From a virus (Duplodnaviria > Heunggongvirae > Uroviricota > Caudoviricetes), in IMG/VR virus record IMGVR_UViG_3300036770_002544, positions 10,654-74,653 of that record: 64,000 nucleotides of DNA, one strand, 5' to 3'. Shown in pieces: positions 4,711 to 46,155 of this stretch. The notes beneath the pieces are model-generated. The model was not told the DNA's origin. It was given only the letters and a program-made list of their open reading frames with translations, and did not search any database. Position 1 is the stretch's first letter; each line of letters starts with the position of its first letter. A program made the translations under genes and the position numbers.

Positions 4711-4786
4711 TCCTCAGTAGCTCAGTTGGTAGAGTAGCGGACTGTTAATCCGTTGGTCGCTGGATCGTGCCCAGCCTGGGGAGCCA
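4711..4786 (+). tRNA. tRNA-Asn(GTT)
   Basis: Acceptor tcctcag/ctgggga. D-arm tagctcagttggtagagta. Anticodon arm gcgga-CTGTTAA-tccgt. T-arm gctgg-ATCGTGC-ccagc. gCCA. Confidence 0.85.
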
Positions 4787-4794
4787 AACAAAAT

Positions 4795-4870
<76 letters not shown>

Positions 4871-4876
4871 GGATCA

Positions 4877-5909
4877 GATGTATACTCTAGACTTTTGCGA
4901 AGTTTATATCACTAATGTATGCAATTTAAATTGCACTCATTGTAATCGTTTTAATAATTTTGCTTTTGCAGGACACTCGCGGTGGGAAGATTACCAGCAC
5001 GATTACCAGCAATGGGCAAAAAAAGTAAATTTTAACAGTATCAGTATCCTTGGTGGAGAACCGTTATCCAACCCTGATTTTTTAAATTGGATGCATGGTA
5101 TTGCCACCGTGTGGAACAGTGCAGAAATATCTATTCTCACCAATGGGACACAGTTAGATAGATGGCCCAGTTTGTACAAAGAAATAAAAAAATACAACGG
5201 TCGTGTCACTGTTGTTATAAGCGAACATAGTCCGCAGCACTGGCTTGATGCCATTGGCAATGTAAAAAATTTTTTGCAAGGAACAATAGAAAATCAGGAA
5301 CATAAAACTTGGAAACAGTCTTATGATTCGATCAAAGATTCGTCATGGCCCGACTGCAATACCCCTGATGATTTTTATACCTTGCCTGAGCACATTCAAA
5401 CCGAATGTCAAACAGTGTTTAACATACACCCAACAAACAATGAATTTTCAGCCACCAGCGAGCGTGTTCATTTTTACAAAGACTCTAACAATGTAAAAAT
5501 TCTACTAGAGCCAAGTTGGATGTTTAAACCTAATGCATTGATATACCAAAGCACAAATCAAATTGATTTATACAACAGTGATCCAGAAAAAGCAATAAAA
5601 GCATGCACCATGAAAAAATGTCCGCAGTTCAGTCGCGGCAAACTTTACAAGTGCCCGCCGGTGACTGTGCTAGGTGATTTCATACAGCAATTCTCAATCA
5701 ATGTGTCTGACGCTGATAAGCAACTGATAGATGCGTATAAGCCTGCGTCACACTGTTGGCCTGATGATCAACTTAAGAAATTTTTAGATGATTTAACAGA
5801 TTTAAAAACAATCCCACAATGCAAGTTTTGTCCAGAAGAACTTCCATTTATTAAGTTTTCAGCTGGGACTAAAAAAATCAAACTGTTAAAAAAACAAAAC
5901 TTATCATAA
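4877..5909 (+). CDS. radical SAM protein with C-terminal Cys-rich (SPASM/twitch-like) region
   Basis: CNLNCTHC Cx3Cx2C at residues about 15-22. Extra Cys pairs near the C-terminus (CTMKKCPQF, CKFCPE). The table ORF 4767 start runs through tRNAs; the true start is taken as ATG 4877. Confidence 0.7.
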
Positions 5910-6938: not shown

Positions 6939-7703
6939 ATGACTATTACTAAATTCACTACTGCACAACAACAGCTTTTGAAATTTGTATTAACGTGTGT
7001 CTCTTCTGTGCTGGGTATCTATGTATACCTAATACTAGGCGGCACCTTACTCAAGGCATTTCTGATATATCTATGTTTTGTATTAGTATCTAGAGTTGCA
7101 AACCTAGGTTATCATAGATGGCTGGCACACAACTTGTTAGAACCTGATTTGTTTGGTAGAATTTTTATACTATGGTGTATGGTAAGTTCGGCGTTAGTGA
7201 AGCCTTTGCCCTATGTCATAGGTCATAGACTGCATCACAAATATTCAGACACTGATAAAGATCCTCATCATCCCGGACTAGGGTTATGGGCTTGCTTGAT
7301 AGGAAACTTTAATGTCGTTGAAAACTTAACAATACCAGTAAAAGATTTGTATAGAAAAAAAGAAGTAATGTTTGTCAATAGATATTACTATCAATTATAT
7401 CTTGCAAACTTGCTATTGTTTTGGTTCATTGACAAAGATATAGTGCTACTAAGTTTCTCACTGTTAAACTTGCGTATGTGGGTCAACATAACTGTGTTCA
7501 ACTATCTTGCACACGGAGGTAAGCACGGAAAATCTCCTAAAAATTTGCCAGCCTGGACTAGTTACGTGTTAGGATATTCGGGAGAACAGTTACACAAAAA
7601 TCATCATGATGATCCTTCGTCTAGCGATTTTGGTAAATTGTCAAGATGGAATTTTGATATCATGTACAAAGTGTACAGCAAAATAGTCAAAGTTAAAAAT
7701 TAA
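6939..7703 (+). CDS. membrane fatty-acid (acyl-lipid) desaturase, delta-9-like
   Basis: Three His boxes HRWLAH, HRLHH, HKNHH. Multiple hydrophobic segments. Confidence 0.8.
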   Translation: MTITKFTTAQQQLLKFVLTCVSSVLGIYVYLILGGTLLKAFLIYLCFVLVSRVANLGYHRWLAHNLLEPDLFGRIFILWCMVSSALVKPLPYVIGHRLHHKYSDTDKDPHHPGLGLWACLIGNFNVVENLTIPVKDLYRKKEVMFVNRYYYQLYLANLLLFWFIDKDIVLLSFSLLNLRMWVNITVFNYLAHGGKHGKSPKNLPAWTSYVLGYSGEQLHKNHHDDPSSSDFGKLSRWNFDIMYKVYSKIVKVKN

Positions 7704-8592: not shown

Positions 8593-9234
8593 TCAATGTC
8601 TATTAGGATCTCGAGTTTTTTCAAACTCTGGCACATGTTCGTTGCAACCAGGAAACCATGCTGGGGCAGGTGGAAGATCACACACTTCTCTAGTGAGATC
8701 TATCAACAAAATGAGACGCCGCTCTGAAGTGTTGTTCCAAACACTATGCAACTTTTGATTGTTGAAAGAAAAGACATCATCCCATAGTACAATTTCGTTT
8801 TCAACTTCGAAACCAATGTCGCCATCAGGAACGTACAAAGGAATATGGATGCGAATGCTTTTGGCATCTCTGTTTTCTATGCCAGTGTGTCTGTAAATAA
8901 TAGAGTTGGGTTCTACAATACTGTAACCAGCTAGGTGGCAGTGTTGTCCAAAAGCTTCAACTAATGAAAATGCAGTGGGATACCGAAGTCTATTGGATTC
9001 TGCAAGAACTCCTGATATATGTTTGATGCCTGATATTTTCCAGGCATTTTCTTTATCGTACAAGGTAGAATTTTGTCCAGTAGGATTTTGACGGTAAGGC
9101 ACGCTAGTAAATTTTTCTCCCGACTGGAAGTCTGGGTGCGCTTTGACAAAGTCTGCAAGTAAAGCAGGTTGTAACGCTCTAAACAATGCAGCAAATTTAA
9201 CTTCGTCGCCGCGATAGATATTTTTAAGTTCCAT
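8593..9234 (-). CDS. aspartyl/asparaginyl beta-hydroxylase-family (AspH-like, 2OG-Fe oxygenase cupin) protein
   Basis: Motif HTGIENRDAKSIRIHIPL matches the AspH H-x-G...N...R-x-H-x-PL signature. Paralog of 10868-11545. Confidence 0.6.
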   Translation of the reverse strand: MELKNIYRGDEVKFAALFRALQPALLADFVKAHPDFQSGEKFTSVPYRQNPTGQNSTLYDKENAWKISGIKHISGVLAESNRLRYPTAFSLVEAFGQHCHLAGYSIVEPNSIIYRHTGIENRDAKSIRIHIPLYVPDGDIGFEVENEIVLWDDVFSFNNQKLHSVWNNTSERRLILLIDLTREVCDLPPAPAWFPGCNEHVPEFEKTRDPNRH

Positions 9235-9448: not shown

Positions 9449-9802
9449 AGTTTTGTAGTAACCAGAGTCCTGTGTAAAAGGTGTTGCGGACGTCATGCGC
9501 TCTTTTTATCGCATGGGTCAATAAAGATCGAAGCGCAAACTAATAAGGTTGTGTCCTTGCCTACTACAGATTAGTTTTGCAAACAATAAAAACGTGTAGG
9601 GGTAATACCCCTTGAAGCTCTGTGCAGAGATGCACATCTTCTATGGATCAGTTGGTGGGATGAGAGGTCCTTCCCTGTTGCCGGTGTCAAGAGTTATCCA
9701 TTGTGGGAGCCGGAGTGCCAACCCAGGTCGATAGTTTACAGCCACACGCCCTAGCGAAACCGGATTGTTTGCAATTTTTTATTGTTGTTGAGAAGAAAAG
9801 AA

Positions 9803-10018
9803 ATGTATAAAATAGCAGAAAAAGAATTTGCCAATCTGGAGTTGGCAATGGCACATGCCAGGCAGTTAAATGAGTTTGTAACTATTGCTGGACCCGACTT
9901 TGAAGTTTGTGGCCGCTTTGGGGTAGATAGCGTTGAACGCGGGCTGTGCCCTGATGGTATTGCATACGATTGGAACAAGGCCAGTCGTACAGGTCGCGTA
10001 CAACGCGAACGAGTCTAA
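9803..10018 (+). CDS. hypothetical small protein
   Basis: ORF following a roughly 330-nt structured noncoding stretch. Weak RBS. Confidence 0.3.
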   Translation: MYKIAEKEFANLELAMAHARQLNEFVTIAGPDFEVCGRFGVDSVERGLCPDGIAYDWNKASRTGRVQRERV

Positions 10019-10867: not shown

Positions 10868-11545
10868 TTATTGCTGACAACTATGTAACATCTTGGGCAG
10901 TTGTCCTCGTACAAAATCTGGTACATGTTGATACCGAGTTACATCAGTTTTTATTCCCGGTTCAAGCCCCAGCACATCACGATGAAGGTCTAGCAAGTAG
11001 ACCAATCTGCGATGATCAGTATAATTGTATGCACTGTGTATGAACTGATTGTCAAACGCAAACAAATCTGACCAATCAATCTCTACGCCTTCAACTTCAA
11101 AGAAAATATCGCCAGGTGGCACTATCAACGGTATGTGTATTCTCACATACAGTCCATCTCTGTTTTCTACGCCGGTATGTCGTGAAATCACTGCATTATG
11201 CTCTAAGATACTGTAGGTGCTAACTGGGCAGGCATCGCCATATTTTTCAGTTAGTGCAACTGCTGTGGGGAAACGTTCTCGAATATCGTTGTGTTTGGTC
11301 TTGTCTATGACCAAATTGTGTCGAGGATTGGTATATTTTAATGGATCAACTTTCCAAGCATCGGGCCTGCTTTTGTAAGGATCGGTACTGAATATTGGGT
11401 TTTGATATGGGACACCTTTGGCAAAGTCGCCTTGAACAAAGTCAGTGTGGTAGGCCAAAAACTCTTCTAGTAGTTTAGGTGCTAGGGCTAGTAACTCGTC
11501 GGCTATTGGGATTTCTTCTCGGAGCCATATAGATTTTCTTGTCAT
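10868..11545 (-). CDS. aspartyl/asparaginyl beta-hydroxylase-family protein (paralog)
   Basis: HTGVENRDGLYVRIHIPL motif. Roughly 45 percent identical by eye to the 8593-9234 product. Confidence 0.6.
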   Translation of the reverse strand: MTRKSIWLREEIPIADELLALAPKLLEEFLAYHTDFVQGDFAKGVPYQNPIFSTDPYKSRPDAWKVDPLKYTNPRHNLVIDKTKHNDIRERFPTAVALTEKYGDACPVSTYSILEHNAVISRHTGVENRDGLYVRIHIPLIVPPGDIFFEVEGVEIDWSDLFAFDNQFIHSAYNYTDHRRLVYLLDLHRDVLGLEPGIKTDVTRYQHVPDFVRGQLPKMLHSCQQ

Positions 11546-11613
11546 AAAAATATTTACTCTAGTAATTCCGTGCGGAACAAAAATCAGTTGTGCAAATCGA
11601 GGTATATAAAGTT

Positions 11614-12165
11614 ATGCCTAACTGTTTTGAAATTCAACTTGCACTTCCGGTGTTGTTTGACCCCAGGCCATATGACACTGATCTAAGTCCTGCACCTTAT
11701 TACATTGATCCTGGGTCGGAGTTTGTTGTATGGTTGCATAGTCTTGGATTAGAAATAACAAAAGCTGGTGCGGAACAGTTCTATACTCCACCTGGCGGAA
11801 CCATTCCTGTTCACATCGACGGTAGAAATTTTGACAACAAAGTGAAGTTAAACTTTCAACGTGGGGGAAAAGGTAGCACCATGCGATGGTACCAGTTAAA
11901 CAACGCCAATTCAACCATGAACTCAAAAAATGGAGATTTTGGTGAGTTTTTTATGATACAACCGGAGCAGGTAACACAGACATGGCAAGCAGAAATTGGA
12001 TCCCCTAGTTTGATCAATGCAGGAATCTTACACAATGTTGTTAACGGCCCTGAACCCAGATGGGTTGTGAGTGTACCTTTATGGGATGTGACTGCTAATC
12101 AAAACTTACAATGGCATACTGCAGTAGATAAATTTCAACAATGGATTGTTCAAAAACATGATTGA
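11614..12165 (+). CDS. hypothetical protein
   Basis: ORF, with a possible GTG start at 11590. Its stop overlaps the next start (ATGATTGA). Confidence 0.45.
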   Translation: MPNCFEIQLALPVLFDPRPYDTDLSPAPYYIDPGSEFVVWLHSLGLEITKAGAEQFYTPPGGTIPVHIDGRNFDNKVKLNFQRGGKGSTMRWYQLNNANSTMNSKNGDFGEFFMIQPEQVTQTWQAEIGSPSLINAGILHNVVNGPEPRWVVSVPLWDVTANQNLQWHTAVDKFQQWIVQKHD

Positions 12166-12985
12166 CGTCGACCTAACAGATTTAAAAACAAGAGGTTTTG
12201 CGGTTGTAAAGAATTTTCTAACCGACTTGGAAATTAAACCACAATTACAAAATTACGAGATTCAAAAAAACAATCAATCGTCCCAAATCAAAATAAAAAA
12301 TTACTCTGTGATCAAAGCAAGCACTGAGCATAATTTAACTGACAAAATTAAACGTTTACTTGACAAAGTTGCTCAACAAACAGACATATCTATAAATCTT
12401 GTGGGACCAACAGGTGTGTATTTTGACACACAACTAGTAAATACTGGATGGCATCAAGACCATTTATCTTATTATACTTGGCAAACAGGCTACCATCAGA
12501 TAAACTTTTGGATACCTTTGATCAAGCCGTGCCCAACCATGTCAGGGCTTTGCGTGGTTCCAATGGATACGTTAAAAACACACATAGGCGATTTGTTCGA
12601 ACAACACATATTGGATCAAGGTGCAAAGAGATTTATACCAACAGACAACCGTACTCATGTGATTGACGACGACTCCGGACATGAGTTTGAGTTACCAGTT
12701 AATCTCAATGATATTGCAGTGGCTCCAGAACTGCAAGCAGGTGATTTGCTGATAGTCAGAGGAGATGTAATACATACTACCCAGGATTCTGACACCAATC
12801 GTGTTGCCCTTGCAATAAGAGCAGTAGACGGAAACAAGGCAGTTGATCGAACAAAGTTTCAACAGCAGTGCAACATGAAAAAAATGTTGCTCGACGCTGA
12901 TTCGGGCACTAAAAAAATTAACAATTACTTTGCTGCTGGACACAATCAGTTTGTCATACACGACCTTTATAGAGGACGTATTTGA
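12158..12985 (+). CDS. phytanoyl-CoA dioxygenase (PhyH)-family 2OG-Fe(II) oxygenase
   Basis: GWHQDHLSY motif, and a distal His in GDVIHTTQDS. Confidence 0.65.
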   Translation: MIDVDLTDLKTRGFAVVKNFLTDLEIKPQLQNYEIQKNNQSSQIKIKNYSVIKASTEHNLTDKIKRLLDKVAQQTDISINLVGPTGVYFDTQLVNTGWHQDHLSYYTWQTGYHQINFWIPLIKPCPTMSGLCVVPMDTLKTHIGDLFEQHILDQGAKRFIPTDNRTHVIDDDSGHEFELPVNLNDIAVAPELQAGDLLIVRGDVIHTTQDSDTNRVALAIRAVDGNKAVDRTKFQQQCNMKKMLLDADSGTKKINNYFAAGHNQFVIHDLYRGRI

Positions 12986-17793: not shown

Positions 17794-18138
17794 ATGCGTC
17801 TCGAAAAAAGTGTTGCTGTTGCAGTTGAATTTGCTGAAAAAGTTGCTCTGGCTCGAGTGCGATTTAAAAATGCAAAACTTTCCCAAATGGATATGGATTG
17901 GTACGAATCAAAATGGAAAACATTTTCAAATTCTGCCGAAGTAGATCACATGCTCAACACGTTAACTGATGCTTTATCGTTGTATTGGGACGTTGATCAG
18001 GAACTAAAATTAGACCCTACAAATTTAAAATTATTTTTAAACAGGGCAGAAATGACCAGACAAATTAGCAAAATTAGGCACAAGTTATTTTTGTTAGCAT
18101 CTGATGCTAACACAAACAAAGCATCAGATGGCATATGA
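17794..18138 (+). CDS. hypothetical protein
   Basis: ORF. Confidence 0.4.
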   Translation: MRLEKSVAVAVEFAEKVALARVRFKNAKLSQMDMDWYESKWKTFSNSAEVDHMLNTLTDALSLYWDVDQELKLDPTNLKLFLNRAEMTRQISKIRHKLFLLASDANTNKASDGI

Positions 18139-19693
18139 TTGTATTATTTTTACAGATGTAACTTACACAAATCTGGTGTATAAGCCAATGGGTGCTTATA
18201 AGTTAGCAAATCATCTGAGATCCAGTGGGTACAGTTGTTTAGTAGTTGATCATTTTCATACTTTTACTCAGCAGCAAATTTTAGATATTATTGCTGCGTC
18301 AGTAGGACCAGAAACTAAATTTGTTGGGTTTAGTATTGCTTTCTTCAATAGTGTAGAAGGTACTAATCCAATGGATCCGATATCTGATAATACCTATAAA
18401 CCGTTAGAATATAATCAATCGTTTTGTCCGCAAGGACAGGCATTTGAAATTGCATTGGTCTCTGCCATTCACGATATCAACAGCCATTGCAAAATAGTAT
18501 TAGGTGGTGCGGCCAGGATCAGCAATCAGATTAAAAATCCCAGGGTAGATTACGTGATTTCGGGATTCGCCGAAGTTGCTATATTAGATTTAGTGCATTC
18601 TTTGGAGCTTGGTCAGGTTCCGGGTACAGCAGTAAAAAATATATGGGGAACGCACATCATAGATGGTGGATCAGCTGAGTCATTTGACTATCAGCACAGC
18701 GAGATGGTATGGCAACCCGAAGATGTGGCTGGTATAAAAGTTTTACAACTCGATGTATCTCGTGGCTGCAAATTTAACTGTACTTTTTGCGACTGGAGCA
18801 TGCGTGGTACCAAGAATAACAAATGGACACGCGAAATAGACGTTCTTGCTTCAGAACTTCAGCGCAATTATGATCAGTATGGCATATATCGATACTTTGT
18901 ACATGACCATACTTTTAACGAAAGTGACTACAAACTCAATGTAGTCAAACAAGCAGTCAAACAATTAACATTTCAGCCCATCATCTGGTGTCACGTCAGA
19001 CCAGATTTACTAGTTAAATACCCCAACCGTACTGATACCATGTACGAAGTTGGTGTCAGGAGCATGATGATGGGTATCGAGACCCTGGACCCAGATGTGG
19101 CCAAAACTGTAGGCAAAGGTCTTGCACCAGAAAAAATCATTGCTGAATTAAAAAATATTCAACAACGCTACGGCAACGAGTTGTTGACCCATGGTAATTT
19201 TGTCATTGGCTTACCAGGCGAATCTATTGACAGTGTTCTTGCTACCGCTGCACGATTAGAAAACGGAGATATTTCGTTGCACCATTGGAGCTACAATGCA
19301 TTGATGATCAGCACAGATCATAACAATTGGTGGGGGTCTACATACGAACAAGATCCGGCCAGATACGGCTACACAGAAAACAAAAACACAATCACGACAG
19401 GATTTAATATTGATTATAGAAAAAATTCACTGATGAACTGGCGCAATGATCATATGACCTTTGAACAAGCTATGCATCTGAACAAAAAGTTATACGACTC
19501 GGCAGCCGATAACCCAGCCTATCTGGTAGACAGCATGGTCAGTTGGGCATTGATGGGTTTCACTGACCTAGACTTTAAAGGCATACAGAAGTTGCGTCCC
19601 CGGGATATTGATTGGTTTTCAGTGTCCAAGCAACGATTGCACTATCTATACGATTACAAGAAAAATATAATTAAACATGTGCACGGTAAATAA
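18128..19693 (+). CDS. radical SAM protein with N-terminal B12-binding-like domain (class B-like)
   Basis: CKFNCTFC Cx3Cx2C at about residue 210. The N-terminal region is Rossmann-like. Confidence 0.65.
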   Translation: MAYDCIIFTDVTYTNLVYKPMGAYKLANHLRSSGYSCLVVDHFHTFTQQQILDIIAASVGPETKFVGFSIAFFNSVEGTNPMDPISDNTYKPLEYNQSFCPQGQAFEIALVSAIHDINSHCKIVLGGAARISNQIKNPRVDYVISGFAEVAILDLVHSLELGQVPGTAVKNIWGTHIIDGGSAESFDYQHSEMVWQPEDVAGIKVLQLDVSRGCKFNCTFCDWSMRGTKNNKWTREIDVLASELQRNYDQYGIYRYFVHDHTFNESDYKLNVVKQAVKQLTFQPIIWCHVRPDLLVKYPNRTDTMYEVGVRSMMMGIETLDPDVAKTVGKGLAPEKIIAELKNIQQRYGNELLTHGNFVIGLPGESIDSVLATAARLENGDISLHHWSYNALMISTDHNNWWGSTYEQDPARYGYTENKNTITTGFNIDYRKNSLMNWRNDHMTFEQAMHLNKKLYDSAADNPAYLVDSMVSWALMGFTDLDFKGIQKLRPRDIDWFSVSKQRLHYLYDYKKNIIKHVHGK

Positions 19694-19740
19694 AAACAGC
19701 AGCGCCAACAAGGGTTGACGCCGGATTTCAATACAGACGC

Positions 19741-19769
19741 TTGACATGTAGATGTCTTTACTGTAGAAT
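19741..19769 (+). promoter_or_regulatory. sigma70-type promoter (TTGACA-N17-TAGAAT) with palindrome
   Basis: ttgacatgtagatgtctttactgtagaat. ctgtag-aatatac-tacag inverted repeat over the -10. Confidence 0.5.
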
Positions 19770-19842
19770 ATACTACAGAACGCCTGCCGTATGCAGAGTT
19801 CTTCTGCAAGCTAATACAACCATAATATTTTTAGGAATTAAC

Positions 19843-20811
19843 ATGATTCGATCATTCTCACGCCTGGTTGCGTTTGCGCTAGCCAGTATTGCTATCACTT
19901 CTGCTAATGCAGAAGTCTACCCTTCAAAACCCATCAATATCGTTGTGCCATACAACGCTGGCGGCGGTATGGATAACGTTATCCGTAAAATGACCACCGA
20001 ATTAGAAAAGGAACTTGGGCAGCCAGTTACTGTTGTAAATCAAGCAGGAGCTGGTGGTAATGTTGGCACTCGTAAACTTGCTGAATCTGCCCCTGATGGT
20101 TATACCATTGGTATGAGCGGTGGCTCTACGTTTGGCACTAATCAGGTATTCAACAAAGAAGTACCATATGATGCAGGCAAACAATTTGAGTTTGTTAGCA
20201 TGGTTGGTACTTTGCCACGTATTGTTGTGGTCAGTGCTGCAGGCCCAATTAAAACAATCGACGACCTAAAGAAAGAAGCACTAACTAATCCCAAGTTTAC
20301 AATGGCGGCTGCACTCAACAGTCCAGACATCTTGATGGGTGAAATTTTCAAACACAAAATGCTAGGCAAGCCAGTTATTGCCAGTTACGGTGCAGCAACT
20401 AACACCATGATGGTCGATTTGGTTGGTGGCCGTATTCATGCAGTATGGAACAGCGTTCCAGCATTGAATGCTTGCTTGACTAACAATACCTGTGTAGCAC
20501 TTGCAGTTACTGGCAAACAACGTCTCAAAGGCTTGCCCAATGTCCCAACCTTTGCCGAAGTGGGTCTTGCTGAAGTAGATGCTCCTGCTTACTATGGCAT
20601 CGTTACACCCAAAGGTGTTGCTGCTGACAAGATTGCCAAACTAAACCGTGCGTTTAACCGTGTAATTCAAAATGAAAAAGTTGCCAGCGATCTTGATAAA
20701 ATGGGTGTGGTTACTATTGTGAGTTCTCCTGCCGAAACCAAAGAACAACACTTACAAGGTATTGCTAATGCCAAGAAGTATGCCGCAGTGGCAAACATTG
20801 TGGCAAAATAA
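19843..20811 (+). CDS. TctC-family (tripartite tricarboxylate transporter) periplasmic substrate-binding protein with signal peptide
   Basis: Signal peptide MIRSFSRLVAFALASIAITSANA. Typical Bug/TctC-like region YPSKPINIVVPYNAGGGMDNVIR. Confidence 0.65.
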   Translation: MIRSFSRLVAFALASIAITSANAEVYPSKPINIVVPYNAGGGMDNVIRKMTTELEKELGQPVTVVNQAGAGGNVGTRKLAESAPDGYTIGMSGGSTFGTNQVFNKEVPYDAGKQFEFVSMVGTLPRIVVVSAAGPIKTIDDLKKEALTNPKFTMAAALNSPDILMGEIFKHKMLGKPVIASYGAATNTMMVDLVGGRIHAVWNSVPALNACLTNNTCVALAVTGKQRLKGLPNVPTFAEVGLAEVDAPAYYGIVTPKGVAADKIAKLNRAFNRVIQNEKVASDLDKMGVVTIVSSPAETKEQHLQGIANAKKYAAVANIVAK

Positions 20812-20814
20812 ATC

Positions 20815-21432
20815 ATGCATGTTCTAGTCACAGGAGCATCCAGTGGAGTTGGTCTTGCTTGTGCAAAATTGCTAGAGCAACAAGGACACGCTGTGACCAC
20901 GTGGTCCAGTGCAGACTGTGACTTTGATTATCCGGATAGAATCTTTGATCATGATCTATCCGGATATGACATGATTATAAACTGTGCAGGGCATGGTCAA
21001 GGGCATAATCATAATTTTTTTACCAACACCTGGCAAAATCAACTTAGCCAGGTCATGGTTAACTACGTATCAAACATATTCCTGTATAAACATTATGTAA
21101 ATTCTGTGAGCACAGGAAGATATGTTTGGGTAGGATCTAGACTCACTGCATGCCCTAACAGCAAGCCTTGGCAGGCTGTGTACACCACTACTAAATCTGC
21201 TAGCGCAATAACAATTGAATCGGCTAATCAAGATCAATCACATGTGTCTACGCTGGAGGTTATGTTAGGGCTTACTAGATCTAATTTTAGATACAGAAGT
21301 CAATTGGGTTTCACTGATCAACAAGAAATTGAACAAATGTGGAATTCCCAAGGAGCAATCAGTTCAGATCAAGCAGCCAGTCGAATCATTGAGTCTGCAT
21401 TCAGTGATTGCAAAAAAATATTAATAGAATAA
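20815..21432 (+). CDS. short-chain dehydrogenase/reductase (SDR)-like
   Basis: N-terminal TGASSGVG NAD(P)-binding motif. Confidence 0.6.
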   Translation: MHVLVTGASSGVGLACAKLLEQQGHAVTTWSSADCDFDYPDRIFDHDLSGYDMIINCAGHGQGHNHNFFTNTWQNQLSQVMVNYVSNIFLYKHYVNSVSTGRYVWVGSRLTACPNSKPWQAVYTTTKSASAITIESANQDQSHVSTLEVMLGLTRSNFRYRSQLGFTDQQEIEQMWNSQGAISSDQAASRIIESAFSDCKKILIE

Positions 21433-21433
21433 T

Positions 21434-22024
21434 ATGTTTTACACAATATTAGATTGTCCTCCTTTGCCAGTTGAGTTTGAGCAAGAAGTTATTGCAACAG
21501 TAAGGGGCACAGAACGACTTAAAGTTAAAACGTTCAAAGATGCCCCAGGTCGCAAAGAATATAGAGAACGTATAGTAACCATGCCCGATGGCAGTCGATG
21601 CACTAGCGTCACTAGTCAAAAGTGGTCAATTAGTGCAGAACTTGAGCAGTGGATTCGAGACAATGTCTACAACGGGCCATGGGTAGATGTTGGTATTAAC
21701 AGCCATAATACTGTCAGCAACGTAATGGGACCACATGTCGACGATATTAAAAACGAAATTATTCTTTATGTTGTTGAAACTGGCGGGGACAATGTAGAGA
21801 CTGCTTGGTGGCAGGAACAAGGCTTTCCTGTAGAGAGACCAGACAAACTGCCAGCAAACAACAACGGCGAATTCTATACCAGCACAGACGACTACAGCAA
21901 GCTCGTTGAACTTGAGCGTGTGTGTTTGCCCACTGGTAAATGGGTACGCATGAACACCTTGGTATTACACAGTGTTGAAAATATCACTGGTGTAAGAACC
22001 ATTGTCAAGATTGGGTTAGACTAA
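21434..22024 (+). CDS. hypothetical protein (paralog A)
   Basis: C-terminus ...WVRMNTLVLHSVENITGVRT parallels the next gene. Confidence 0.45.
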   Translation: MFYTILDCPPLPVEFEQEVIATVRGTERLKVKTFKDAPGRKEYRERIVTMPDGSRCTSVTSQKWSISAELEQWIRDNVYNGPWVDVGINSHNTVSNVMGPHVDDIKNEIILYVVETGGDNVETAWWQEQGFPVERPDKLPANNNGEFYTSTDDYSKLVELERVCLPTGKWVRMNTLVLHSVENITGVRTIVKIGLD

Positions 22025-22629
22025 TGTTTACGTGGATGCCGATGGCACATTTACCACAGGTACCCGAGTACCTGGTCAACATTGCACAAAATTTAATCAG
22101 TACTAAGACAGACGGGGATAGCGATTTTACCAAAGAAATTGACCACTCGAAGTATCTAAACAGATGGTTAGATCTAAACGATGGCTCTCGCGTACAATCA
22201 AGATCGCAACGTGGCATAATGATGCCACAAATTTGGGACGATTGGGTAAAGGCAAACATCACACAAAAATACATCGAAACCAGCATACGTGTAAGTGAAG
22301 GTAATAGTACCACACACGGCGCACATTGCGACTTTAGACGCAAGTGGAAATTATATTATTTGCTGAGCCGCGGCGGCGATAACGCAACAACTTATTTTTA
22401 TCGTCAAAAAGGACACCCAATTGTTCGTGAAGAGATTACCGATGACGACACACGGCTTATTGCAGTTACTGACTACTCTGAACTAGAAGTGGTTGACTCA
22501 GTGCAATGGCCATTGAATCAATGGGTTCTGCTGAATACCATGATACTGCACGGAGTAGAAGGCATAACTGGCTTGCGATCAAATTTTACTGTTGGTATTC
22601 CTCCTGATTATTCTTTGTTGTTTAATTAA
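22024..22629 (+). CDS. hypothetical protein (paralog B)
   Basis: C-terminus ...WVLLNTMILHGVEGITGLRS. ATG overlaps the preceding stop. Confidence 0.45.
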   Translation: MFTWMPMAHLPQVPEYLVNIAQNLISTKTDGDSDFTKEIDHSKYLNRWLDLNDGSRVQSRSQRGIMMPQIWDDWVKANITQKYIETSIRVSEGNSTTHGAHCDFRRKWKLYYLLSRGGDNATTYFYRQKGHPIVREEITDDDTRLIAVTDYSELEVVDSVQWPLNQWVLLNTMILHGVEGITGLRSNFTVGIPPDYSLLFN

Positions 22630-22632
22630 TGT

Positions 22633-23784
22633 ATGAGCCTAAAAACATTTGACACAGCAGATTACTACTGGCAAGTAGGTGATCAAAAAACTTTTAGTAA
22701 GCAGCAGGCTATTATCTGGGCAGGCGGTGACGTTAGCAAAATACACTATTACTTCATGGACGAATTGTGGGATTCACAAGACTGGACACAAAAGCCCAAG
22801 CACACAGTACACGAACTCATGCGTACCAGGTGCAGGCAACTGAGATCACAATACAAAAATGTGCGTGTGGCTTACAGTGGTGGGTATGACAGTCAAGGTA
22901 TCATTGATGCATTTGCTAGATCAAGTATTCCTGTTGATAGTGTGTTAATACGAATTAAAAACTACAAAGTTACTCCAGAAAACAAAATTGCGGTACAGCA
23001 AGCTCGTGCGTTACAAAATACCATATGGCCCAATCTAAAAATAGAAACCGTTGAACTAGAAGCCAACGACTTTTACCAATTCTATCAGCAGCACAAGGAT
23101 GACTGGATTGTGCAACCTGCTGGCGGTTACGAGCCTTGGTTTTACAAAGTAAACCTGAGTTTTCTTGAAAACTACAATCCAGATTTTCAACGTGCTCGAG
23201 ACAACTATGTCACACAAAATACCTGTGATGTTTACGGTATAGAAAAGCCAAGGCTTTGGATTGAAAATGGTGCATGGTATGCTACCATGATTGACAAAAC
23301 ATTGAACTGGGTAGCCAACACCAGTGTTGAAAGTTTTTATATCAGTCGAGACTTACCCGAGTTGCATGTAGCACAAACTTGGGCCATGCTTGACTGGATT
23401 GAGAGCCAACCATTTACTACACAAGAAGAAGTACATACATTTTTACACTCAATACAAAGTCACAAACAAGGGTGGGACAAGTACAGAGATTGGAACTTAG
23501 CAATAGGTCGCAGCATGGTACTCAACATGTATAGTTACGAAGGCGGCGGTACTAAGGGTTATAATAGTGGGGACCCAAGAAACAACAAAGGATGCCAGGA
23601 TTTAATGGCTGAAGCAAGGCGCACTCATGCTGATGCAATTGCAACGTGGGAAGGCGTACTTGGAGATTTCGAAACACAGTACGCTAATGCAATCGAAAGC
23701 AGTGGCGAAATTGCCGGGTGCTGGAGTAAAAAATATTACATCAAACCAGTAGAGCCCGGACGTTTGAATAGGAACAAACAATGA
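22633..23784 (+). CDS. hypothetical protein
   Basis: ORF. Confidence 0.45.
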   Translation: MSLKTFDTADYYWQVGDQKTFSKQQAIIWAGGDVSKIHYYFMDELWDSQDWTQKPKHTVHELMRTRCRQLRSQYKNVRVAYSGGYDSQGIIDAFARSSIPVDSVLIRIKNYKVTPENKIAVQQARALQNTIWPNLKIETVELEANDFYQFYQQHKDDWIVQPAGGYEPWFYKVNLSFLENYNPDFQRARDNYVTQNTCDVYGIEKPRLWIENGAWYATMIDKTLNWVANTSVESFYISRDLPELHVAQTWAMLDWIESQPFTTQEEVHTFLHSIQSHKQGWDKYRDWNLAIGRSMVLNMYSYEGGGTKGYNSGDPRNNKGCQDLMAEARRTHADAIATWEGVLGDFETQYANAIESSGEIAGCWSKKYYIKPVEPGRLNRNKQ

Positions 23785-24416
23785 AAAAACTCTATGACTT
23801 TTTATACCAAACACAAGTAGACCCTGCAAATCCTGGGCGTTGGTATACTTTACGTCCAAATCAGCCTTTGCTTGACTGTCTCAGCGAAATGAACATTCGT
23901 TCTTGCAAATTGGAATCATTTGTTACCACCTATAATGATTACAATTATACAAAACAGGCTGCACAGTTCAATATGACTGTAGAAGAAATAAAAAGTTGGA
24001 TGCTTGATCCCGAATATCAGCGATACTCAGACAATGCCAATAGTCGAATTGCTATATTACCCACAGACTTAGAATCACGTATAAGACACGAATTGGCAGA
24101 ATACCTAGGGCTTGTTGAGGATACCTTGCTCATGCGCATTCAAGTACAGGCGCCCGGCGAAATGATTGCTTTGCACCTAGACCCGTTAAAGACAAAACTG
24201 TTTGGCGCAGAGGACGAAGAAATTTTAAGATATGCTTGGTTTTTAGAAGATCAAGCACCCGGACAAATTTGGATCATGGGCGAAACAAATCAACCTGTGT
24301 TTTGGAGGTCTGGGGATTTGGTTTATTTTGACAATACTAAATTACCTCATGCCACTGCCAATGTTGGGTATAACGATCGTTACGTTATGATCATCACTGG
24401 CACAAAGAGCAGTTAA
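23781..24416 (+). CDS. putative 2OG-Fe(II) oxygenase-like (HxD...H) protein
   Basis: ALHLDP and KLPHATANVG motifs. Confidence 0.4.
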   Translation: MKKLYDFLYQTQVDPANPGRWYTLRPNQPLLDCLSEMNIRSCKLESFVTTYNDYNYTKQAAQFNMTVEEIKSWMLDPEYQRYSDNANSRIAILPTDLESRIRHELAEYLGLVEDTLLMRIQVQAPGEMIALHLDPLKTKLFGAEDEEILRYAWFLEDQAPGQIWIMGETNQPVFWRSGDLVYFDNTKLPHATANVGYNDRYVMIITGTKSS

Positions 24417-25813
24417 TCTTCTTCTAACCATGTGTTGTACTCAGATCCTTTTTTGCCTATCTTTGGTATGCGCAATTGAAATTTGAGAGTGTCTCCTTCG
24501 TGCAGTTCGCAATCATGTAACTCGTAATCCCCGATTGTAGTAACTGTACCGTCTTTGGCAATTTTAGTTGCACATGATATTGCATGCCAGTCCTTGTTTA
24601 AGTCAGTCCATAAATCTTGTTCTTGTTTCCTCAGCGAACCTTCGTAAGGAACTTCGTAGCTGTCCGAATGTTGAGCAAATGATATGTAATAGTGAGACCA
24701 ATTAAAGTGAACATTGATCAATACTATCATACCTTTGAGTACCTTGACTTCGGCTAATGCCATGCGCTCTTCTGCAGGAATCCATTGCGGAAAGTCACCT
24801 TCGAGAATAACTCTATCATCAAACATAGATCCGGGTATTGTTGTGCCTGAGTATTTCCAATGTCTGCGTATTTTTACATCTATTCTAGTGTCAGGATCAT
24901 ACACAGATCCTACCAATTTAAATTTACGATAAATTAGATCGTTCCAGTAGGGTTCTCGACGGCCAAACACCACAGTCTTTTGTAGTTTAAGTCCACCTTT
25001 TCTGTGATCCATACAGGTACCTAGATCACTGTGGTTGAATGGATCGTGCCCCCATTCTGAGTTTCCTAAATTTTTAAGTTTGTATCCTTTTTCTTGATAC
25101 ATTAATTTTAGTTCGTCAAAAACATTGCCGTCGGCGCGGCTAGACAACTTTAAAACTTTTTCTGTTACATATAACTCTGCAAATTCTGTTAAAAACTCTC
25201 CTGCAAGGGAACGATTCCAACAAAGCCAACCTGTCTCTGTGCTACCACGGCCATCGTGCCAATCAGGCATAACATACTCTCTGCCCAAGTACGAAACAAC
25301 CTCATTATGAGACGGTGCCATTTTTTCAAGTAAATTGTGAGTTACTTGATCAAAAATAAACACGTCAGCATCAAGCCATATCAATCTATCTGCTGTGGAC
25401 TTTTTGTGTGCAATGTATTGTGCAATCACTTTGTAAGAATATTTTAAAGCATTAGCCGATGACATTGAGATTTGCCCCCAGTTGGTACGAGCTAGCCAAC
25501 CCGAAACATGTGCTGAATCCTGTTCACTAGGGACTAGTCCGGTGCAATCAGGACGCTCCTTCCATTTTTTTCTTGTTGCAGCATACTCTAAATGTTCAAC
25601 ATCAATGTCTAGCACAATCACTCTAGGACTCTCGTGCTCAAACACAAAATCATTGATCACTACATACAAGTTGGTATCTTCAGGAAAATACTTGACAAAG
25701 TTGTCAACAAATGTTTTTCCATATAATTCGTATGCAGTTTTATGAAAACTAGTAACAACATCAAACTTCAATTTGTACTCTCCAAAATTTCCTAGTAGTA
25801 TTGATACCAGCAT
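24413..25813 (-). CDS. putative nucleotide-sugar glycosyltransferase (DxD)
   Basis: WLDADVFIFDQ DxD motif. 466-aa ORF. Confidence 0.45.
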   Translation of the reverse strand: MLVSILLGNFGEYKLKFDVVTSFHKTAYELYGKTFVDNFVKYFPEDTNLYVVINDFVFEHESPRVIVLDIDVEHLEYAATRKKWKERPDCTGLVPSEQDSAHVSGWLARTNWGQISMSSANALKYSYKVIAQYIAHKKSTADRLIWLDADVFIFDQVTHNLLEKMAPSHNEVVSYLGREYVMPDWHDGRGSTETGWLCWNRSLAGEFLTEFAELYVTEKVLKLSSRADGNVFDELKLMYQEKGYKLKNLGNSEWGHDPFNHSDLGTCMDHRKGGLKLQKTVVFGRREPYWNDLIYRKFKLVGSVYDPDTRIDVKIRRHWKYSGTTIPGSMFDDRVILEGDFPQWIPAEERMALAEVKVLKGMIVLINVHFNWSHYYISFAQHSDSYEVPYEGSLRKQEQDLWTDLNKDWHAISCATKIAKDGTVTTIGDYELHDCELHEGDTLKFQLRIPKIGKKGSEYNTWLEED

Positions 25814-26666
25814 TGTCTATTTTACGATGTAGTACATATCTGTTGTCCCAGATTACTATTTGGTCTGGACGCCATCTGTGTTGATATATCCATGCAGGAT
25901 TGTTTAGCTGTTGCTTCAACATGTTAACAATAGCATCGCTTTCGGCCTCTGACAAGTTCAACAGCCGAGGATGATCTTTTGGACTAAAATTCAACCAATC
26001 ATTGTTTTTTACAATTTTATCAACAAACGGCGTTGGAATATGAGTTTTTAATTTAAAAATTGCAGCCACAACATCTTTAATGTTGCCGGACTTTAGTGCA
26101 TGCTGCATTGCTAATGACAAGTAATAATGATGATTCCTATAAAATGTACTAGTGTGTTCTATCTCCAACTGTGACAGCAGATTTTTGATCGGATCACTTA
26201 GCGAATCGTAAATTCCTTTGAGATTGCAAAAACTTGTATCCCCTAATAGCTCATTACCATCAGACTTGCTAAACTTTACAGTAGCGATTCCAATCATTCG
26301 TTTGTCAGTGTAGCTTGCGCCATCTTGATGCCAGTCGTTTAGATCTATAGACTTTGGTAGCCCCGGGGCGGTTACAGAAGTAAGATCGTCTACCCCAATG
26401 TCGGATCCAGTGTAGTAATCAAGTTCTGTAGTTGGTGTTATTTTGTAATAGGACACCTGAGGAAACAACTTTCCAATTTTTTGAGCATAGTCAACCAGAC
26501 ATTGTTGAGTATTAATGCTAGCGTTTTGAACTACTAATACCTTGTGTTTTTTCAAAAGGTCAATGACCTGTGATGGTTCTAGACTTTGTGCATCAAGTTG
26601 AGCCCCAAAACTCCAGTTTAATGTTTGCATCACAATATTTAACACAGCCAATGTTGCTTTAAACAA
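25761..26666 (-). CDS. TauD/TfdA-family 2OG-Fe(II) dioxygenase
   Basis: WHQDGASY and VIWDNRYVLHRKI...R motifs. Confidence 0.6.
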   Translation of the reverse strand: MFKATLAVLNIVMQTLNWSFGAQLDAQSLEPSQVIDLLKKHKVLVVQNASINTQQCLVDYAQKIGKLFPQVSYYKITPTTELDYYTGSDIGVDDLTSVTAPGLPKSIDLNDWHQDGASYTDKRMIGIATVKFSKSDGNELLGDTSFCNLKGIYDSLSDPIKNLLSQLEIEHTSTFYRNHHYYLSLAMQHALKSGNIKDVVAAIFKLKTHIPTPFVDKIVKNNDWLNFSPKDHPRLLNLSEAESDAIVNMLKQQLNNPAWIYQHRWRPDQIVIWDNRYVLHRKIDNAGINTTRKFWRVQIEV

Positions 26667-26684
26667 AAGTATTAATTTTTAGAG

Positions 26685-26713
26685 TTGACTGAATATTCGT
26701 CGTTTGCTATAAT
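26685..26713 (+). promoter_or_regulatory. sigma70-type promoter (TTGACT-N17-TATAAT, TGn extended -10)
   Basis: ttgactgaatattcgtcgtttgctataat. SD aaaggag follows. Confidence 0.55.
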
Positions 26714-26743
26714 ACACACATGTTAACGCAAAAGGAGTCAACA

Positions 26744-26920
26744 ATGAGCAAGATGAGTGAACTGGCACTGGACATTGAGTACCTTCTCAAAGAAGGCCGG
26801 AGTTTTGCGCAAATTGCACGTGAGCTAGAAATCCCAGTGCAATTTGTAGTTGAGGCCGCAGACGTCATCGAACGCGACAACGATCAAGACTGTAGCCCTT
26901 TTGCAACAATCAACAGTTGA
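26744..26920 (+). CDS. hypothetical small acidic protein
   Basis: SD aaaggagtcaacaATG. Confidence 0.45.
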   Translation: MSKMSELALDIEYLLKEGRSFAQIARELEIPVQFVVEAADVIERDNDQDCSPFATINS

Positions 26921-36507: not shown

Positions 36508-37476
36508 ATGAAATTTTTAGTAACAGGCGGACACGGTCTTATTGGGCACAATGTGGTTCAACGACTACAAGCAAGGGAAGAAGATGTAGTTGTTGTTGAC
36601 AATCATACTAACTACGGCATTATTCCGCAAGCAGAAATTGATTACTTAATCGGCGAGCGTCTCAAGAAACTCAAAGATCATACACAATATAGTTACGATA
36701 TTGCCAATACAGATGTAGTTGAAGCAGTGTTTGCTAACGAAAAACCCAATGTAGTAATTCATTGTGCAAGTTTTCCTAGACAAAAAGTAGTCAATGCAAA
36801 TCCCGTACACGGCGCCGATGTAATGATGCGTGGATTAATCAACTTGCTCGAGGGTGCCAAATCTCACGGTGTTGAGCGTTTTGTTTACATTAGTTCTAGC
36901 ATGGTCTACGGCGACTTTGAAGATCAAGTATTAGAAGGTGATGCTTGTAATCCGCAAGGACAATACGGCATCATGAAACTAGCAGGAGAATGGCTTGTCA
37001 AAGATTATGCGCGAAGAACTGGTATGGAATATGTCATTATCCGTCCGTCGGCGGTCTATGGGCCTTTGGATGTGGAAGATCGAGTTGTTGCGAAATTTAT
37101 GCTCACGGCCATGCGTGGCGGAACACTCAAGGTTAACGGCGCAGGAGAAACACTCGATTTCACGTATGTTGACGATGCAGCAGCAGGTATTGTGGCAGCA
37201 GCGACTCGCATCATGGCAAAGAACAACACTTACAATATTACTAAATCTCATTCAGTCACCCTCTATGAAGCCGCCCAGATGGTGGTTGACATTGTGGGCA
37301 AAGGCAGCATCGAAGTGAGAGACAAAGACGCAGACTTTCCGTCACGCGGCGCATTAAATATTGATCGTGCTCGTACCATTCTTGGTTACGATCCTAAAGT
37401 AGATGTAGAAGAGGGGTTCCGTGCCTACTACACTTGGCTTACAAATTCCGTTTACTGGTCTCCGAAAACAGTATAA
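36508..37476 (+). CDS. NAD-dependent sugar epimerase/dehydratase
   Basis: N-terminal VTGGHGLIGHNV Rossmann motif. SDR-extended fold (YxxxK context). Confidence 0.7.
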   Translation: MKFLVTGGHGLIGHNVVQRLQAREEDVVVVDNHTNYGIIPQAEIDYLIGERLKKLKDHTQYSYDIANTDVVEAVFANEKPNVVIHCASFPRQKVVNANPVHGADVMMRGLINLLEGAKSHGVERFVYISSSMVYGDFEDQVLEGDACNPQGQYGIMKLAGEWLVKDYARRTGMEYVIIRPSAVYGPLDVEDRVVAKFMLTAMRGGTLKVNGAGETLDFTYVDDAAAGIVAAATRIMAKNNTYNITKSHSVTLYEAAQMVVDIVGKGSIEVRDKDADFPSRGALNIDRARTILGYDPKVDVEEGFRAYYTWLTNSVYWSPKTV

Positions 37477-45948: not shown

Positions 45949-46155
45949 TTATATCCTTCTGAATTTTGGAGTAGCGTCTGCACCGGCTTCGTATTCCAAG
46001 CCTGTTAATGCATCAGCTAGGTCTTGTAGTGATTTTTGATCCAGTCTGTGTCTAATCACTTCTGCTGTGCCACTGCTGTACACAAAATAAAACAAATCTT
46101 GTGGGTTTTGACTCAACTGAGTTTTAAATATTTCTTGGACTTGATCTAGTGTCAT
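45949..46155 (-). CDS. hypothetical small protein
   Basis: ORF coupled to the upstream gene. Confidence 0.35.
   Translation of the reverse strand: MTLDQVQEIFKTQLSQNPQDLFYFVYSSGTAEVIRHRLDQKSLQDLADALTGLEYEAGADATPKFRRI

Follow-up and report, generated by a model that had tools for sequence, protein, structure and literature searches.

The locus described here raises the question of why a phage should carry the gene of an exported solute-binding protein, and of what such a protein would do for the infected cell. The gene lies in a stretch of 64,000 nucleotides from IMG/VR virus record IMGVR_UViG_3300036770_002544 (positions 10,654 to 74,653 of the record; the whole stretch is called the window below, and all positions are window positions unless another locus is named), and encodes a binding protein of the TctC/Bug family, which serves the tripartite tricarboxylate transporters (TTT); the protein is referred to as TctC. 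In the reading favoured here, for which we see about even chances, TctC captures an external acid, hands it to the membrane subunits TctA and TctB (TctAB) of the host, and feeds the enzymes encoded beside it. The reading draws on the family and predicted export of the protein, on its conserved linkage to one set of partner genes, and on the transport components encoded in related modules.

TctC matches the Pfam family TctC (PF03401) with an E-value of 3.7e-38 and a score of 132.1 bits against a cut-off of 27, and its residues 46–295 align with positions 1–250 of the 274-position profile. The closest solved relative by sequence is BugE (2DVZ; E 2.2e-41), a glutamate-binding protein of Bordetella, and the identity to BugE and other orphan Bug/TctC proteins is 30–37%. 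The AlphaFold model, built with 13 sequences as input, has a predicted local distance difference test score (pLDDT) of 85.7 and a predicted template-modelling score (pTM) of 0.80. When this model was compared with the PDB using Foldseek, the top 17 matches were all TTT-family binding proteins (BugE, TBP, TphC, BugD, MatC, AdpC, Bug27, and Polaromonas TctC), with TM-scores of 0.71–0.90 and E-values from 6e-30 to 3e-22. The model predicts a two-lobed type II periplasmic-binding fold like that of BugD and BugE, with BugE as the nearest. NCBIfam and PHROGs gave no family for the TctC protein itself.

The signal peptide was called by rules and by comparison with homologues. The N-terminus begins with MIRSFSR, which contains two arginines, continues with the hydrophobic core LVAFALASIAIT (Kyte–Doolittle value 2.44), and ends in SANA|E, so that the n-, h-, and c-regions of a Sec signal peptide are all recognizable; alanines occupy positions -3 and -1 of the predicted cut, and the mature protein would begin with EVYPSKP. 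The last residue before the cut, Ala23, is conserved at 90% or more among 120 homologues, the alignments of solved mature chains to TctC begin at residues 22–26, and an N-terminus of the same type is found in all 14 distinct phage TctCs that were examined. The signal region also evolves faster than the mature part, with proportions of non-synonymous differences (pN) of 0.115 and 0.058, respectively, against the related locus L083; quicker amino-acid change is usual for signal peptides. TctC is thus predicted from its sequence to be exported by the Sec pathway, and neither a lipobox nor a membrane anchor is found in it. A longer open reading frame (ORF) starting at TTG 19741 was rejected as the coding region, as it overlaps the promoter, indels interrupt the frame ahead of the ATG in relatives, and the homologues all start with the signal peptide. 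The preliminary description had proposed a secreted TctC-family binding protein, to be checked by a profile search; the Pfam match, the BugE-like predicted fold, and the signal peptide all uphold that assignment.

In local profile searches, TctC adjoins a gene of the 383-residue PP-loop-like family (PPL), or lies within about 2 kb of one, in at least nine distinct lineages, the TctCs of which are only 12–51% identical. The gene orders seen are TctC-PPL, PPL-TctC, TctC-c200-PPL, TctC-SDR-c200-c200-PPL, and porin-c200-TctC-PPL, where SDR is a short-chain dehydrogenase-like gene and c200 a family of proteins of about 200 residues, and a protein of that length with an HxD...H...R motif is also present in most of these lineages. 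Every context fetched for homologues of the 383-residue protein has a TctC alongside: in L083, the homologue is 84% identical and the gene order is that of the window; in L084, on a 195-kb scaffold with copies on contigs of up to 347 kb, it is 47% identical; and in L086, where the order is TctC-383aa-210aa, it is 42% identical. This synteny was reached by three independent routes, starting from TctC (L002), from the 383-residue protein (L083, L084, and L086), and from a non-coding cassette upstream of TctC (L090, L091, L093, L096, L097, and L099), and since the last set of loci was reached through a non-coding pattern, the association of TctC with the 383-residue protein is not an artefact of the search.

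Some of the related modules encode further parts of a transport system. L093, an IMG/VR contig with 15 tRNAs, carries TctA (PF01970, E 1.7e-142, 12 membrane spans) and a 66-residue TctB-like ORF (E 5e-4, below the cut-off) directly upstream of a cassette–TctC–PPL arrangement. L146, from a 75-kb JGI contig, encodes TctA (as annotated by Pfam on the record), a TctB-like ORF upstream of TctA (recognized by eye), TctC, and two full-length copies of PPL together with two weak partial PPL matches; it also has a thymidylate-synthase-like protein (Pfam Thy1) with 73% identity to that of the window. A porin of the Porin_4 family is part of the same module in L096 and L102. The presence of TctA and of porins in these modules makes uptake the best-supported reading of TctC function. 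The related loci also encode a class I cytochrome c of 98 residues with a signal peptide (L093, reverse complement, 9537–9833) and a TRAP-type DctP binding protein (L146, 6219–7244, minus strand), which are further exported host-like envelope proteins of this phage family.

No TctA or TctB gene is found in the 64-kb window by a hydrophobicity scan of all ORFs, which extends to the whole window the earlier remark that such genes are not adjacent; the sole credible multi-span ORF (6939–7703) is fatty-acid-desaturase-like. Most bacterial Bug proteins are "orphans" that share few TctAB sets (PMC5812351), so the missing TctAB says little on its own. In the favoured reading, the membrane partners would be those of the host. 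Among named proteins, those closest to the phage TctA are from Burkholderiales (52–57% identity), and the closest GTDB relatives of the phage porin, for which an initial scan gave no match and an alignment-based search was used, are from Polynucleobacter (42% and 40%), with nearly all 42 matches belonging to Burkholderiales or other Betaproteobacteria. Polynucleobacter is among the river taxa that carry TTT genes (PMC7597016). The host would therefore be a freshwater, Polynucleobacter-like member of the Burkholderiales, an assignment that reaches the phage of the window by family resemblance only.

The window itself is very likely phage DNA, from a jumbo-phage-like genome, and the claim that TctC is phage-encoded is borne out. 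It holds 26 tRNA genes between 2455 and 10318, interleaved with small ORFs, which cover 18 amino-acid specificities and are accompanied by no rRNA gene. The best database matches of its MoxR-type ATPase are jumbo phages (PA5oct-group, Phosso, and Atu_ph07; 51–39% identity, with the PA5oct-group at 51%), and MoxR proteins 83–86% identical to it are encoded on the IMG/VR viral loci L096 and L090, the latter from a 320-kb contig. A DUF2201/VWA partner, a thymidylate-synthase-like gene with a PHROG match, and other PHROG families are also present, GC content is even (0.40–0.49), and IMG/VR viral contigs of 197–320 kb carry the same cassette and gene order. No capsid, portal, or terminase gene was identified within the 64 kb, and the phage assignment draws on the indirect marks just listed.

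Within this phage family TctC seems to be an old resident. A search of 5.8 billion proteins returned one identical entry and seven relatives at 62–90% identity, all metagenomic, and then dropped to 38% or less for bacterial proteins, mostly from Burkholderiales and Rhizobiales. A scan of IMG/VR with the TctC protein found no relative, a metagenome scan found only relatives at 40% identity or less, mostly bacterial, and among 50,697 cultured or deposited phage records there was no DNA similarity to the 8-kb region and a single weak tblastn match to TctC (MT836965, 29%). The diverged TctCs at the loci reached through the 383-residue protein are 33–38% identical to that of the window. In a neighbour-joining analysis that included 124 other sequences, 170 of 200 bootstraps place the phage TctCs in one group, a grouping to which long-branch attraction may contribute. 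The ratio of non-synonymous to synonymous substitution rates (dN/dS) is 0.07–0.09 in the clade, and 0.087 against L083 at an unsaturated dS of 0.75, values by which TctC is under strong purifying selection. To judge by these comparisons, TctC belongs to a phage-only clade, and has probably long been carried by a line of jumbo phages whose likely hosts are freshwater Burkholderiales. The preliminary description had suggested a host-derived auxiliary gene for uptake. The uptake part is retained as the best-supported function, given the TctA and porin genes of relatives, whereas a recent, free-standing capture from a host is not supported, in view of the low identity to bacterial proteins, the bootstrap clustering, the operon, and the recurrence of the module. 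A separate trait of the clade is a pair of cysteines, Cys211 and Cys217 (20473–20493; Cys-x5-Cys in the context NACLxNxxC), which is invariant in its eight members, absent in the five bacterial homologues aligned and in L084, L086, and L087, and may form a periplasmic disulfide.

The non-coding cassette lies directly upstream of TctC, spans about 125 nt, and exceeds, by sequence comparison, all neighbouring coding sequences in conservation: it is 90–96% identical in relatives in which the synonymous sites of TctC are saturated, and it is still recognizable where TctC identity is 34–38%. It occurs once in the window and also in L001, L003–L005, L083, L084, and L086–L103; an exact 26-mer of it is found in 16 IMG/VR contigs, in tandem in four (L089, L095, L102, and L103), and it is absent from the 119 bacterial loci examined and, by DNA similarity, from the 50,697 phage records. 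The ORF that follows it is a signal-peptide-bearing TctC of one of several very different types (confirmed by Pfam in L090, L091, L093, and L099), or else a Porin_4 porin (L096 and L102), a small membrane protein (L088), or a member of the 383-residue or c200 family.

The cassette begins with a TAAATAA motif, whose last three bases (19691–19693) are the stop codon of the upstream radical-SAM (S-adenosylmethionine) gene, and with a hairpin, SL0, which is present in L083, L001, L003, L084, and L086 and shows covarying inner stem pairs in IMG/VR loci. In the core unit, TTGACA-(17 nt)-TAGAAT is the best sigma-70-like match (11/12) in the 16–26-kb part of the window, and transcription would start near 19776; the core also contains the dyads GACAT/ATGTC (19743–19756) and CTGTAG/CTACAG (19761–19778), of which the latter encloses the -10 element. 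In the first tandem copy of L089 and L102, the latter dyad reads CTGCAC/GTGCAG, with two compensatory pairs, and the -10 hexamer is lost. Further downstream, hairpin SL3 has an A-U to U-A swap in three of six sequences, and in IMG/VR loci its site is taken by wholly different stems (GTAGA/TCTAC, GAATC/GATTC, GTAATAG/CTATTAC, and GCAATTTG/CAAATTGC). The distal leader near the Shine–Dalgarno sequence is poorly conserved (8/22 to 11/30 identities in L001/L003). RNAalifold, when applied to six copies, gave a four-stem structure with only two covarying pairs, these copies being too alike to prove an RNA structure, and stronger covariation is visible by eye in the IMG/VR copies. The element could be a promoter that is regulated through operators, or else a leader with RNA structure. 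Rfam contains no family for it, a SNORD95 match at 20.5 bits being due to chance, and a candidate minus-strand small RNA ending at the 19723–19700 hairpin was dropped, as its T-run is not conserved in relatives. A second promoter-like family, distinct from the cassette, has the form TTGAC[CT]-N17-TGCTATAAT with an extended -10 element, followed by about 15 conserved nucleotides; its six copies in the window are probably the general promoters of the phage for host RNA polymerase.

TctC is the first of six tightly packed genes, with intergenic gaps of 3, 1, -1, 3, and -4 nt. The short-chain dehydrogenase-like gene has the same position in L002, L005, L083, and L091. The next two genes are the c200 paralogues; in 13 diverse members of the family, collected by a local iterative search and aligned, the residues corresponding to H101, D103, H179, and R188 are invariant, a pattern that would resemble that of 2-oxoglutarate/Fe(II)-oxygenases. 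The c200 family has no Pfam match and no PDB sequence match, and its hhalign comparison with the neighbouring AspH-like cupin was not significant. For the 383-residue protein, only 37 homologues exist, every one from a metagenome and without a name, and a tblastn search of the same 50,697 phage records found none; residues S82, G83, G84, D86, and S87 of its SGGxDS motif are invariant in all 38 sequences. Its AlphaFold model (pLDDT 90.8) gives only weak Foldseek matches, to carbapenam synthetase, LarE, NMN synthetase, MnmA, and TilS (E ~2e-4 to 1e-3, TM 0.2–0.4); seven of the 38 family members match Pfam PF01171, all far below the cut-off, the NCBIfam LarE match has an E-value of 0.005, and no significant match came from Pfam, hhalign, or sequence searches of the PDB. 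Both the 383-residue and the c200 families occur only on phage-like contigs. The operon ends with the AspH-like cupin gene, which overlaps the 383-residue gene by 4 nt, meets a convergent gene at 24413, and has homologues in L002, L086, and L091.

In the favoured reading, these components would act in sequence. The sigma-70-type promoter cassette of TctC would drive transcription of the operon, with TctC as its leading gene, and the protein would be exported through the Sec pathway to the periplasm, where it would capture a small organic acid from outside and pass it to TctA/TctB, which would be those of the host in this phage and are phage-encoded in some relatives. The imported acid would be the substrate of the co-encoded cytoplasmic enzymes: the 383-residue protein, resembling PP-loop ATP pyrophosphatases, would adenylate it, and the two HxD...H oxygenase-like proteins, the AspH-like cupin, and the short-chain dehydrogenase would also process it. 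In some phages, a porin would precede the binding protein and a phage TctA with its TctB-like ORF would follow. We infer the binding of the ligand, the docking to host TctAB, and the chemistry of the partner enzymes. For orphan Bug genes that lie next to enzyme operons, a role in importing the substrates of those enzymes has been proposed (PMC5812351), and phage PstS is abundant in infected cells, in which phosphate uptake rises (bioRxiv 10.1101/2021.07.20.453049). A broader and more tentative proposal, which we rate as possible and clearly below an even chance, is that freshwater jumbo phages carry a self-contained "import and convert" system, made up of the cassette, a porin in some, a TTT binding protein, TctBA in some (elsewhere that of the host), and new PP-loop and oxygenase-like enzymes that would turn the acid into something of use to the phage, such as a cofactor, a modified nucleotide precursor, or a signal.

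The ligand loops bear on the favoured reading from both sides. Pincer loop 1 in domain 1, P36-Y-N-A-G-G-G-M-D44, is invariant in the eight-member clade and agrees with the family signature P-F-x-A-G-G-x-x-D, which holds two waters that bridge the ligand carboxylate (PMC5812351); it therefore counts for membership in the TctC/Bug family and for the proposed function. Pincer loop 2 in domain 2 (A155–I163) is divergent: the clade reads A-A-(gap)-L-N-S-P-D-I and does not fit the pattern of the nearest bacterial members, [ST]-x-G-x-[GC]-[SGT]-x-x-H, the Ser/Thr found in 112 of 112 of these homologues being replaced by Ala. The diverged phage TctCs also have the loop 2 pattern (L/I)-N-(S/T)-x-D. A comparable one-residue deletion is found in a few bacterial subfamilies (L048 and L032), so that loop 2 is variable across the family and membership is not excluded by it. 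On sequence grounds, ligand specificity is not readable from BugE, and a prediction of the ligand from pocket residues was dropped, since the distal pocket of the family is not conserved (PMC5812351) and loop 2 is remodelled.

Several observations weigh against the favoured reading. In loop 2, the glycine present in 112 of the 112 nearest bacterial homologues is deleted and the histidine present in 105 of them is an isoleucine, and with the loop remodelled in this way, classical carboxylate binding is not assured. The partner proteins have no significant family assignment, so that the labels "adenylation" and "oxygenase" derive from motifs and from weak similarity of fold. The conserved neighbourhood indicates linkage, which is not a relation of substrate and product, and one TctC with intact flanks (L101), the only informative case of its kind, has no partner genes nearby. 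Finally, TctAB is missing from the window, and the host is assigned only through other members of the phage family.

Among the other explanations, the one that survives best, which is nevertheless unlikely, is that TctC is a stand-alone auxiliary uptake gene that raises the host's import of a common nutrient for energy or nitrogen, such as the glutamate or aspartate bound by BugE and BugD, and has nothing to do with its neighbours. The nearest solved and named relatives are indeed of the BugE type, cyanophage PstS provides a precedent, and the solitary TctC of L101 would suit it; against this, the linkage to the 383-residue protein has outlasted the shuffling of gene order across the nine lineages with their widely diverged TctCs, both ligand loops differ from those of BugE-like proteins, and no close host homologue is found. 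We consider it quite improbable that TctC is instead a periplasmic sensor, which when loaded would signal through a membrane sensor of the host or phage and so report an external or self-made molecule, possibly one made by the co-encoded enzymes. Roles of Bug-family proteins in signalling have been described (Antoine et al. 2005, as cited in PMC5812351 and PMC2864759), and the control region of the operon is elaborate, strongly conserved, and rich in dyad symmetries, but neither a sensor kinase nor a response regulator is seen in the window or at any related locus, and what the relatives add are transport parts (TctA with short TctB-like ORFs, and porins) rather than signalling parts.

A role outside transport, as a decoy or sequestering protein directed against the host or competing phages (the decoy having been raised in the preliminary description), or as a superinfection-exclusion factor, is very unlikely: predicted export, probable expression from a host-type promoter, and a remodelled binding loop would be compatible with it, yet strong purifying selection maintains the overall fold and a loop 1 typical of the family, the TctA genes of L093 and L146 speak for transport, and TctC has no lipobox or membrane anchor. 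That the window stems from a bacterium or from a chimeric assembly, with TctC as an ordinary bacterial Bug gene, as the abundance of TctC genes in Burkholderiales and the lack of capsid, portal, and terminase genes in the window might suggest, is hardly credible in the face of the tRNA array without rRNA, the best matches to phage families and jumbo phages, the uniform GC content, the gene order shared with large IMG/VR viral contigs, bacterial homologues that all stay at or below 38% identity, and the absence of the cassette from bacterial loci.

Table 1. Coordinates of the TctC gene, its upstream cassette, its operon, and associated elements in the window
Feature	Position	Strand	Detail or basis
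B12-binding radical-SAM protein, 529 residues, directly upstream of the cassette	18104–19693	+	Outside the cassette-driven unit
TAAATAA motif, then hairpin SL0 (CGCC-xyz / z'y'x'-GACG)	19687–19723	+	Sequence, hairpin listing
49-nt core unit	19736–19784	+	GACGC, -35 TTGACA 19741–19746, -10 TAGAAT 19764–19769, then AACGCC
Leader hairpin SL3 (GCAGA GTTCT TCTGC) plus AAGC	19793–19811	+	Stem sequence varies, hairpin kept
Shine–Dalgarno sequence AGGA	19833–19836	+	6 nt before the TctC ATG
TctC gene	19843–20811	+	ATG 19843 to stop 20811, 322 residues
Signal peptide, residues 1–23, MIRSFSRLVAFALASIAITSANA	19843–19911	+	Predicted cleavage after Ala23
Mature TctC/Bug-family solute-binding protein, residues 24–322 plus stop	19912–20811	+	Pfam, fold, dN/dS
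Short-chain dehydrogenase-like protein, 205 residues, second gene	20815–21432	+	Pfam adh_short, E 1.5e-10
c200 protein a, 196 residues	21434–22024	+	H101-x-D103...H179...R188
c200 protein b, 201 residues, paralogue of c200 protein a	22024–22629	+	Iterative search, alignment
PP-loop-like protein (PPL), 383 residues	22633–23784	+	S82-G-G-Y-D-S87 motif
Aspartyl/asparaginyl-hydroxylase-like (AspH-like) cupin, 211 residues, last gene	23781–24416	+	PF05118, E 1.7e-4, just under the cut-off
Second promoter-like family	13982, 16671, 26685, 28998, 29968, 30294	+	Repeat families D5, D7

The flanks of the module are mosaic. A convergent pair of genes downstream of the operon, encoding a 466-residue protein and TauD (24413–26666), is missing in L002 (compared at L002 4548–4807), where the operon is joined directly to sequence homologous to 26684–26776 of the window, and about 5.8 kb between 13965 and 19735 are missing in L001. 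On the other side, the radical-SAM gene also lies 5' of the cassette in L003, L083, L084, L091, and L098. Radical-SAM genes recur in the window at 9–1112 and 4767–5909, and a run of consecutive genes on the minus strand (46152–55787) includes at least five more; in three of its ORFs (47182–48474, 49470–50690, and 50687–51949), a SPASM iron–sulfur domain is N-terminal to the radical-SAM core, the reverse of the usual domain order. According to ARAGORN, tRNA-Asn (4711–4786) and tRNA-Gly (4795–4870) cover the first ~100 nt of the radical-SAM ORF 4767–5909, which has a GTG start; its true start is probably further downstream.

Oxygen-dependent enzymes are unusually concentrated in the window, at 8593–9234 (minus strand), 10868–11545 (minus), 12146–12985 (plus), 23781–24416 (plus), 25761–26666 (minus), 6939–7703 (plus), and 11590–12165 (plus); the set comprises three AspH-like cupins, a PhyH-like protein, a TauD-family dioxygenase, the fatty-acid-desaturase-like membrane protein, and a third, remote c200 paralogue. 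Between 15095 and 16405, four to five copies of a 30–40-nt repeat ending in ...TTGAGGTGGTCATGA, spaced by 209–588 nt (families D9 and D10), look like the gene junction, with a ribosome-binding site and overlapping stop and start, of a family of small tandem ORFs. An 864-residue ORF on the minus strand (38493–41087), which has no Pfam or PHROG match, contains two direct-repeat pairs of 123 and 162 nt (39852–40574; D3 and D6), 72% identical and 195–198 nt apart, which imply that part of this large protein is a repetitive domain. Nucleotide-sugar epimerase-like, aminotransferase-like, and NodU/CmcH-type carbamoyltransferase-like genes on the minus strand at 36508–38524 and 44371–45849 suggest, by their sequences, a sugar-modification pathway elsewhere in the window.

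Phage-encoded binding proteins have so far been understood through a single example, the cyanophage PstS that borrows the phosphate permease of its host, and the same logic would apply here to another transporter class and another ecosystem, that of freshwater Burkholderiales, whose genomes are rich in orphan TctC genes. If the broader "import and convert" proposal is true, the module would represent the first TTT-class uptake pathway encoded by phages, and its binding protein, enzymes, and control region would have co-diversified inside phage genomes. The module offers a handle on what jumbo phages need from outside the cell, on how orphan TTT binding proteins find their membrane partners, and on the roles of two protein families that lack a Pfam match and whose homologues are all unnamed. 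As TctC is small and soluble and has solved relatives, its ligand can be sought directly.

Among known systems, the closest in structure are BugE of Bordetella pertussis (2DVZ), BugD, Bug27, AdpC, MatC, and TphC/TBP, which share the Pfam family, size, signal peptide, and predicted fold of the phage protein; BugE and the orphan Bug proteins also have the same domain-1 loop motif, P-[FY]-x-A-G-G-x-x-D, and likewise lack an adjacent TctAB. Unlike this group, to which it is 30–37% identical, the phage TctC lacks the near-universal Gly and His of loop 2, is phage-encoded, and heads an operon of unannotated enzymes. BctC–BctE of Bordetella belongs to the same family, and BctC also signals to a sensor kinase, showing that family members can exceed substrate delivery, whereas the phage TctC has no linked genes for a kinase or a regulator. 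In its gene neighbourhood, the locus resembles the bacterial orphan tctC genes that lie beside catabolic operons (arylmalonate decarboxylase clusters, and terephthalate tphC with tpiBA), where the binding protein adjoins the enzymes that use the imported acid and the membrane subunits are encoded elsewhere (PMC5812351); the phage partners differ in belonging to no described family (the 383-residue and c200 proteins) and in occurring only on phage-like contigs.

TTT-family binding proteins have also been recorded in phages before. Five UniProt entries from uncultured Caudovirales (A0A6J5T247, A0A6J5L7K0, A0A6J5T9X7, A0A6J5M1T7, and A0A6J5LDG7) match the TctC model in Foldseek with E-values of 1e-23 to 1e-11; they are annotated automatically, as "PBP2_Bug_TTT domain" or "Bordetella uptake protein", and are 18–20% identical to the TctC of the window. 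A tctA domain is mentioned in passing for SUP05 phage contigs (PMC4164917), and our literature search found no analysis of a phage TctC, of the Caudovirales entries, or of this module. The nearest functional analogy would be cyanophage PstS (for example, that of P-SSM2): there, as may be the case here, the periplasmic binding subunit is all that the phage contributes, and the membrane subunits are those of the host. PstS differs in serving an ABC transporter, where the phage TctC would serve a secondary transporter of the TTT class, in having phosphate as its ligand, and in having been acquired from hosts, whereas the phage TctC is far from its bacterial homologues and is linked with downstream enzymes and with a promoter cassette of its own. 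Phage TTT binding proteins are thus already known as automatic entries, and what is new here is a conserved module with its cassette, a variant of the phage theme of the borrowed transporter subunit that may be more than a variant.

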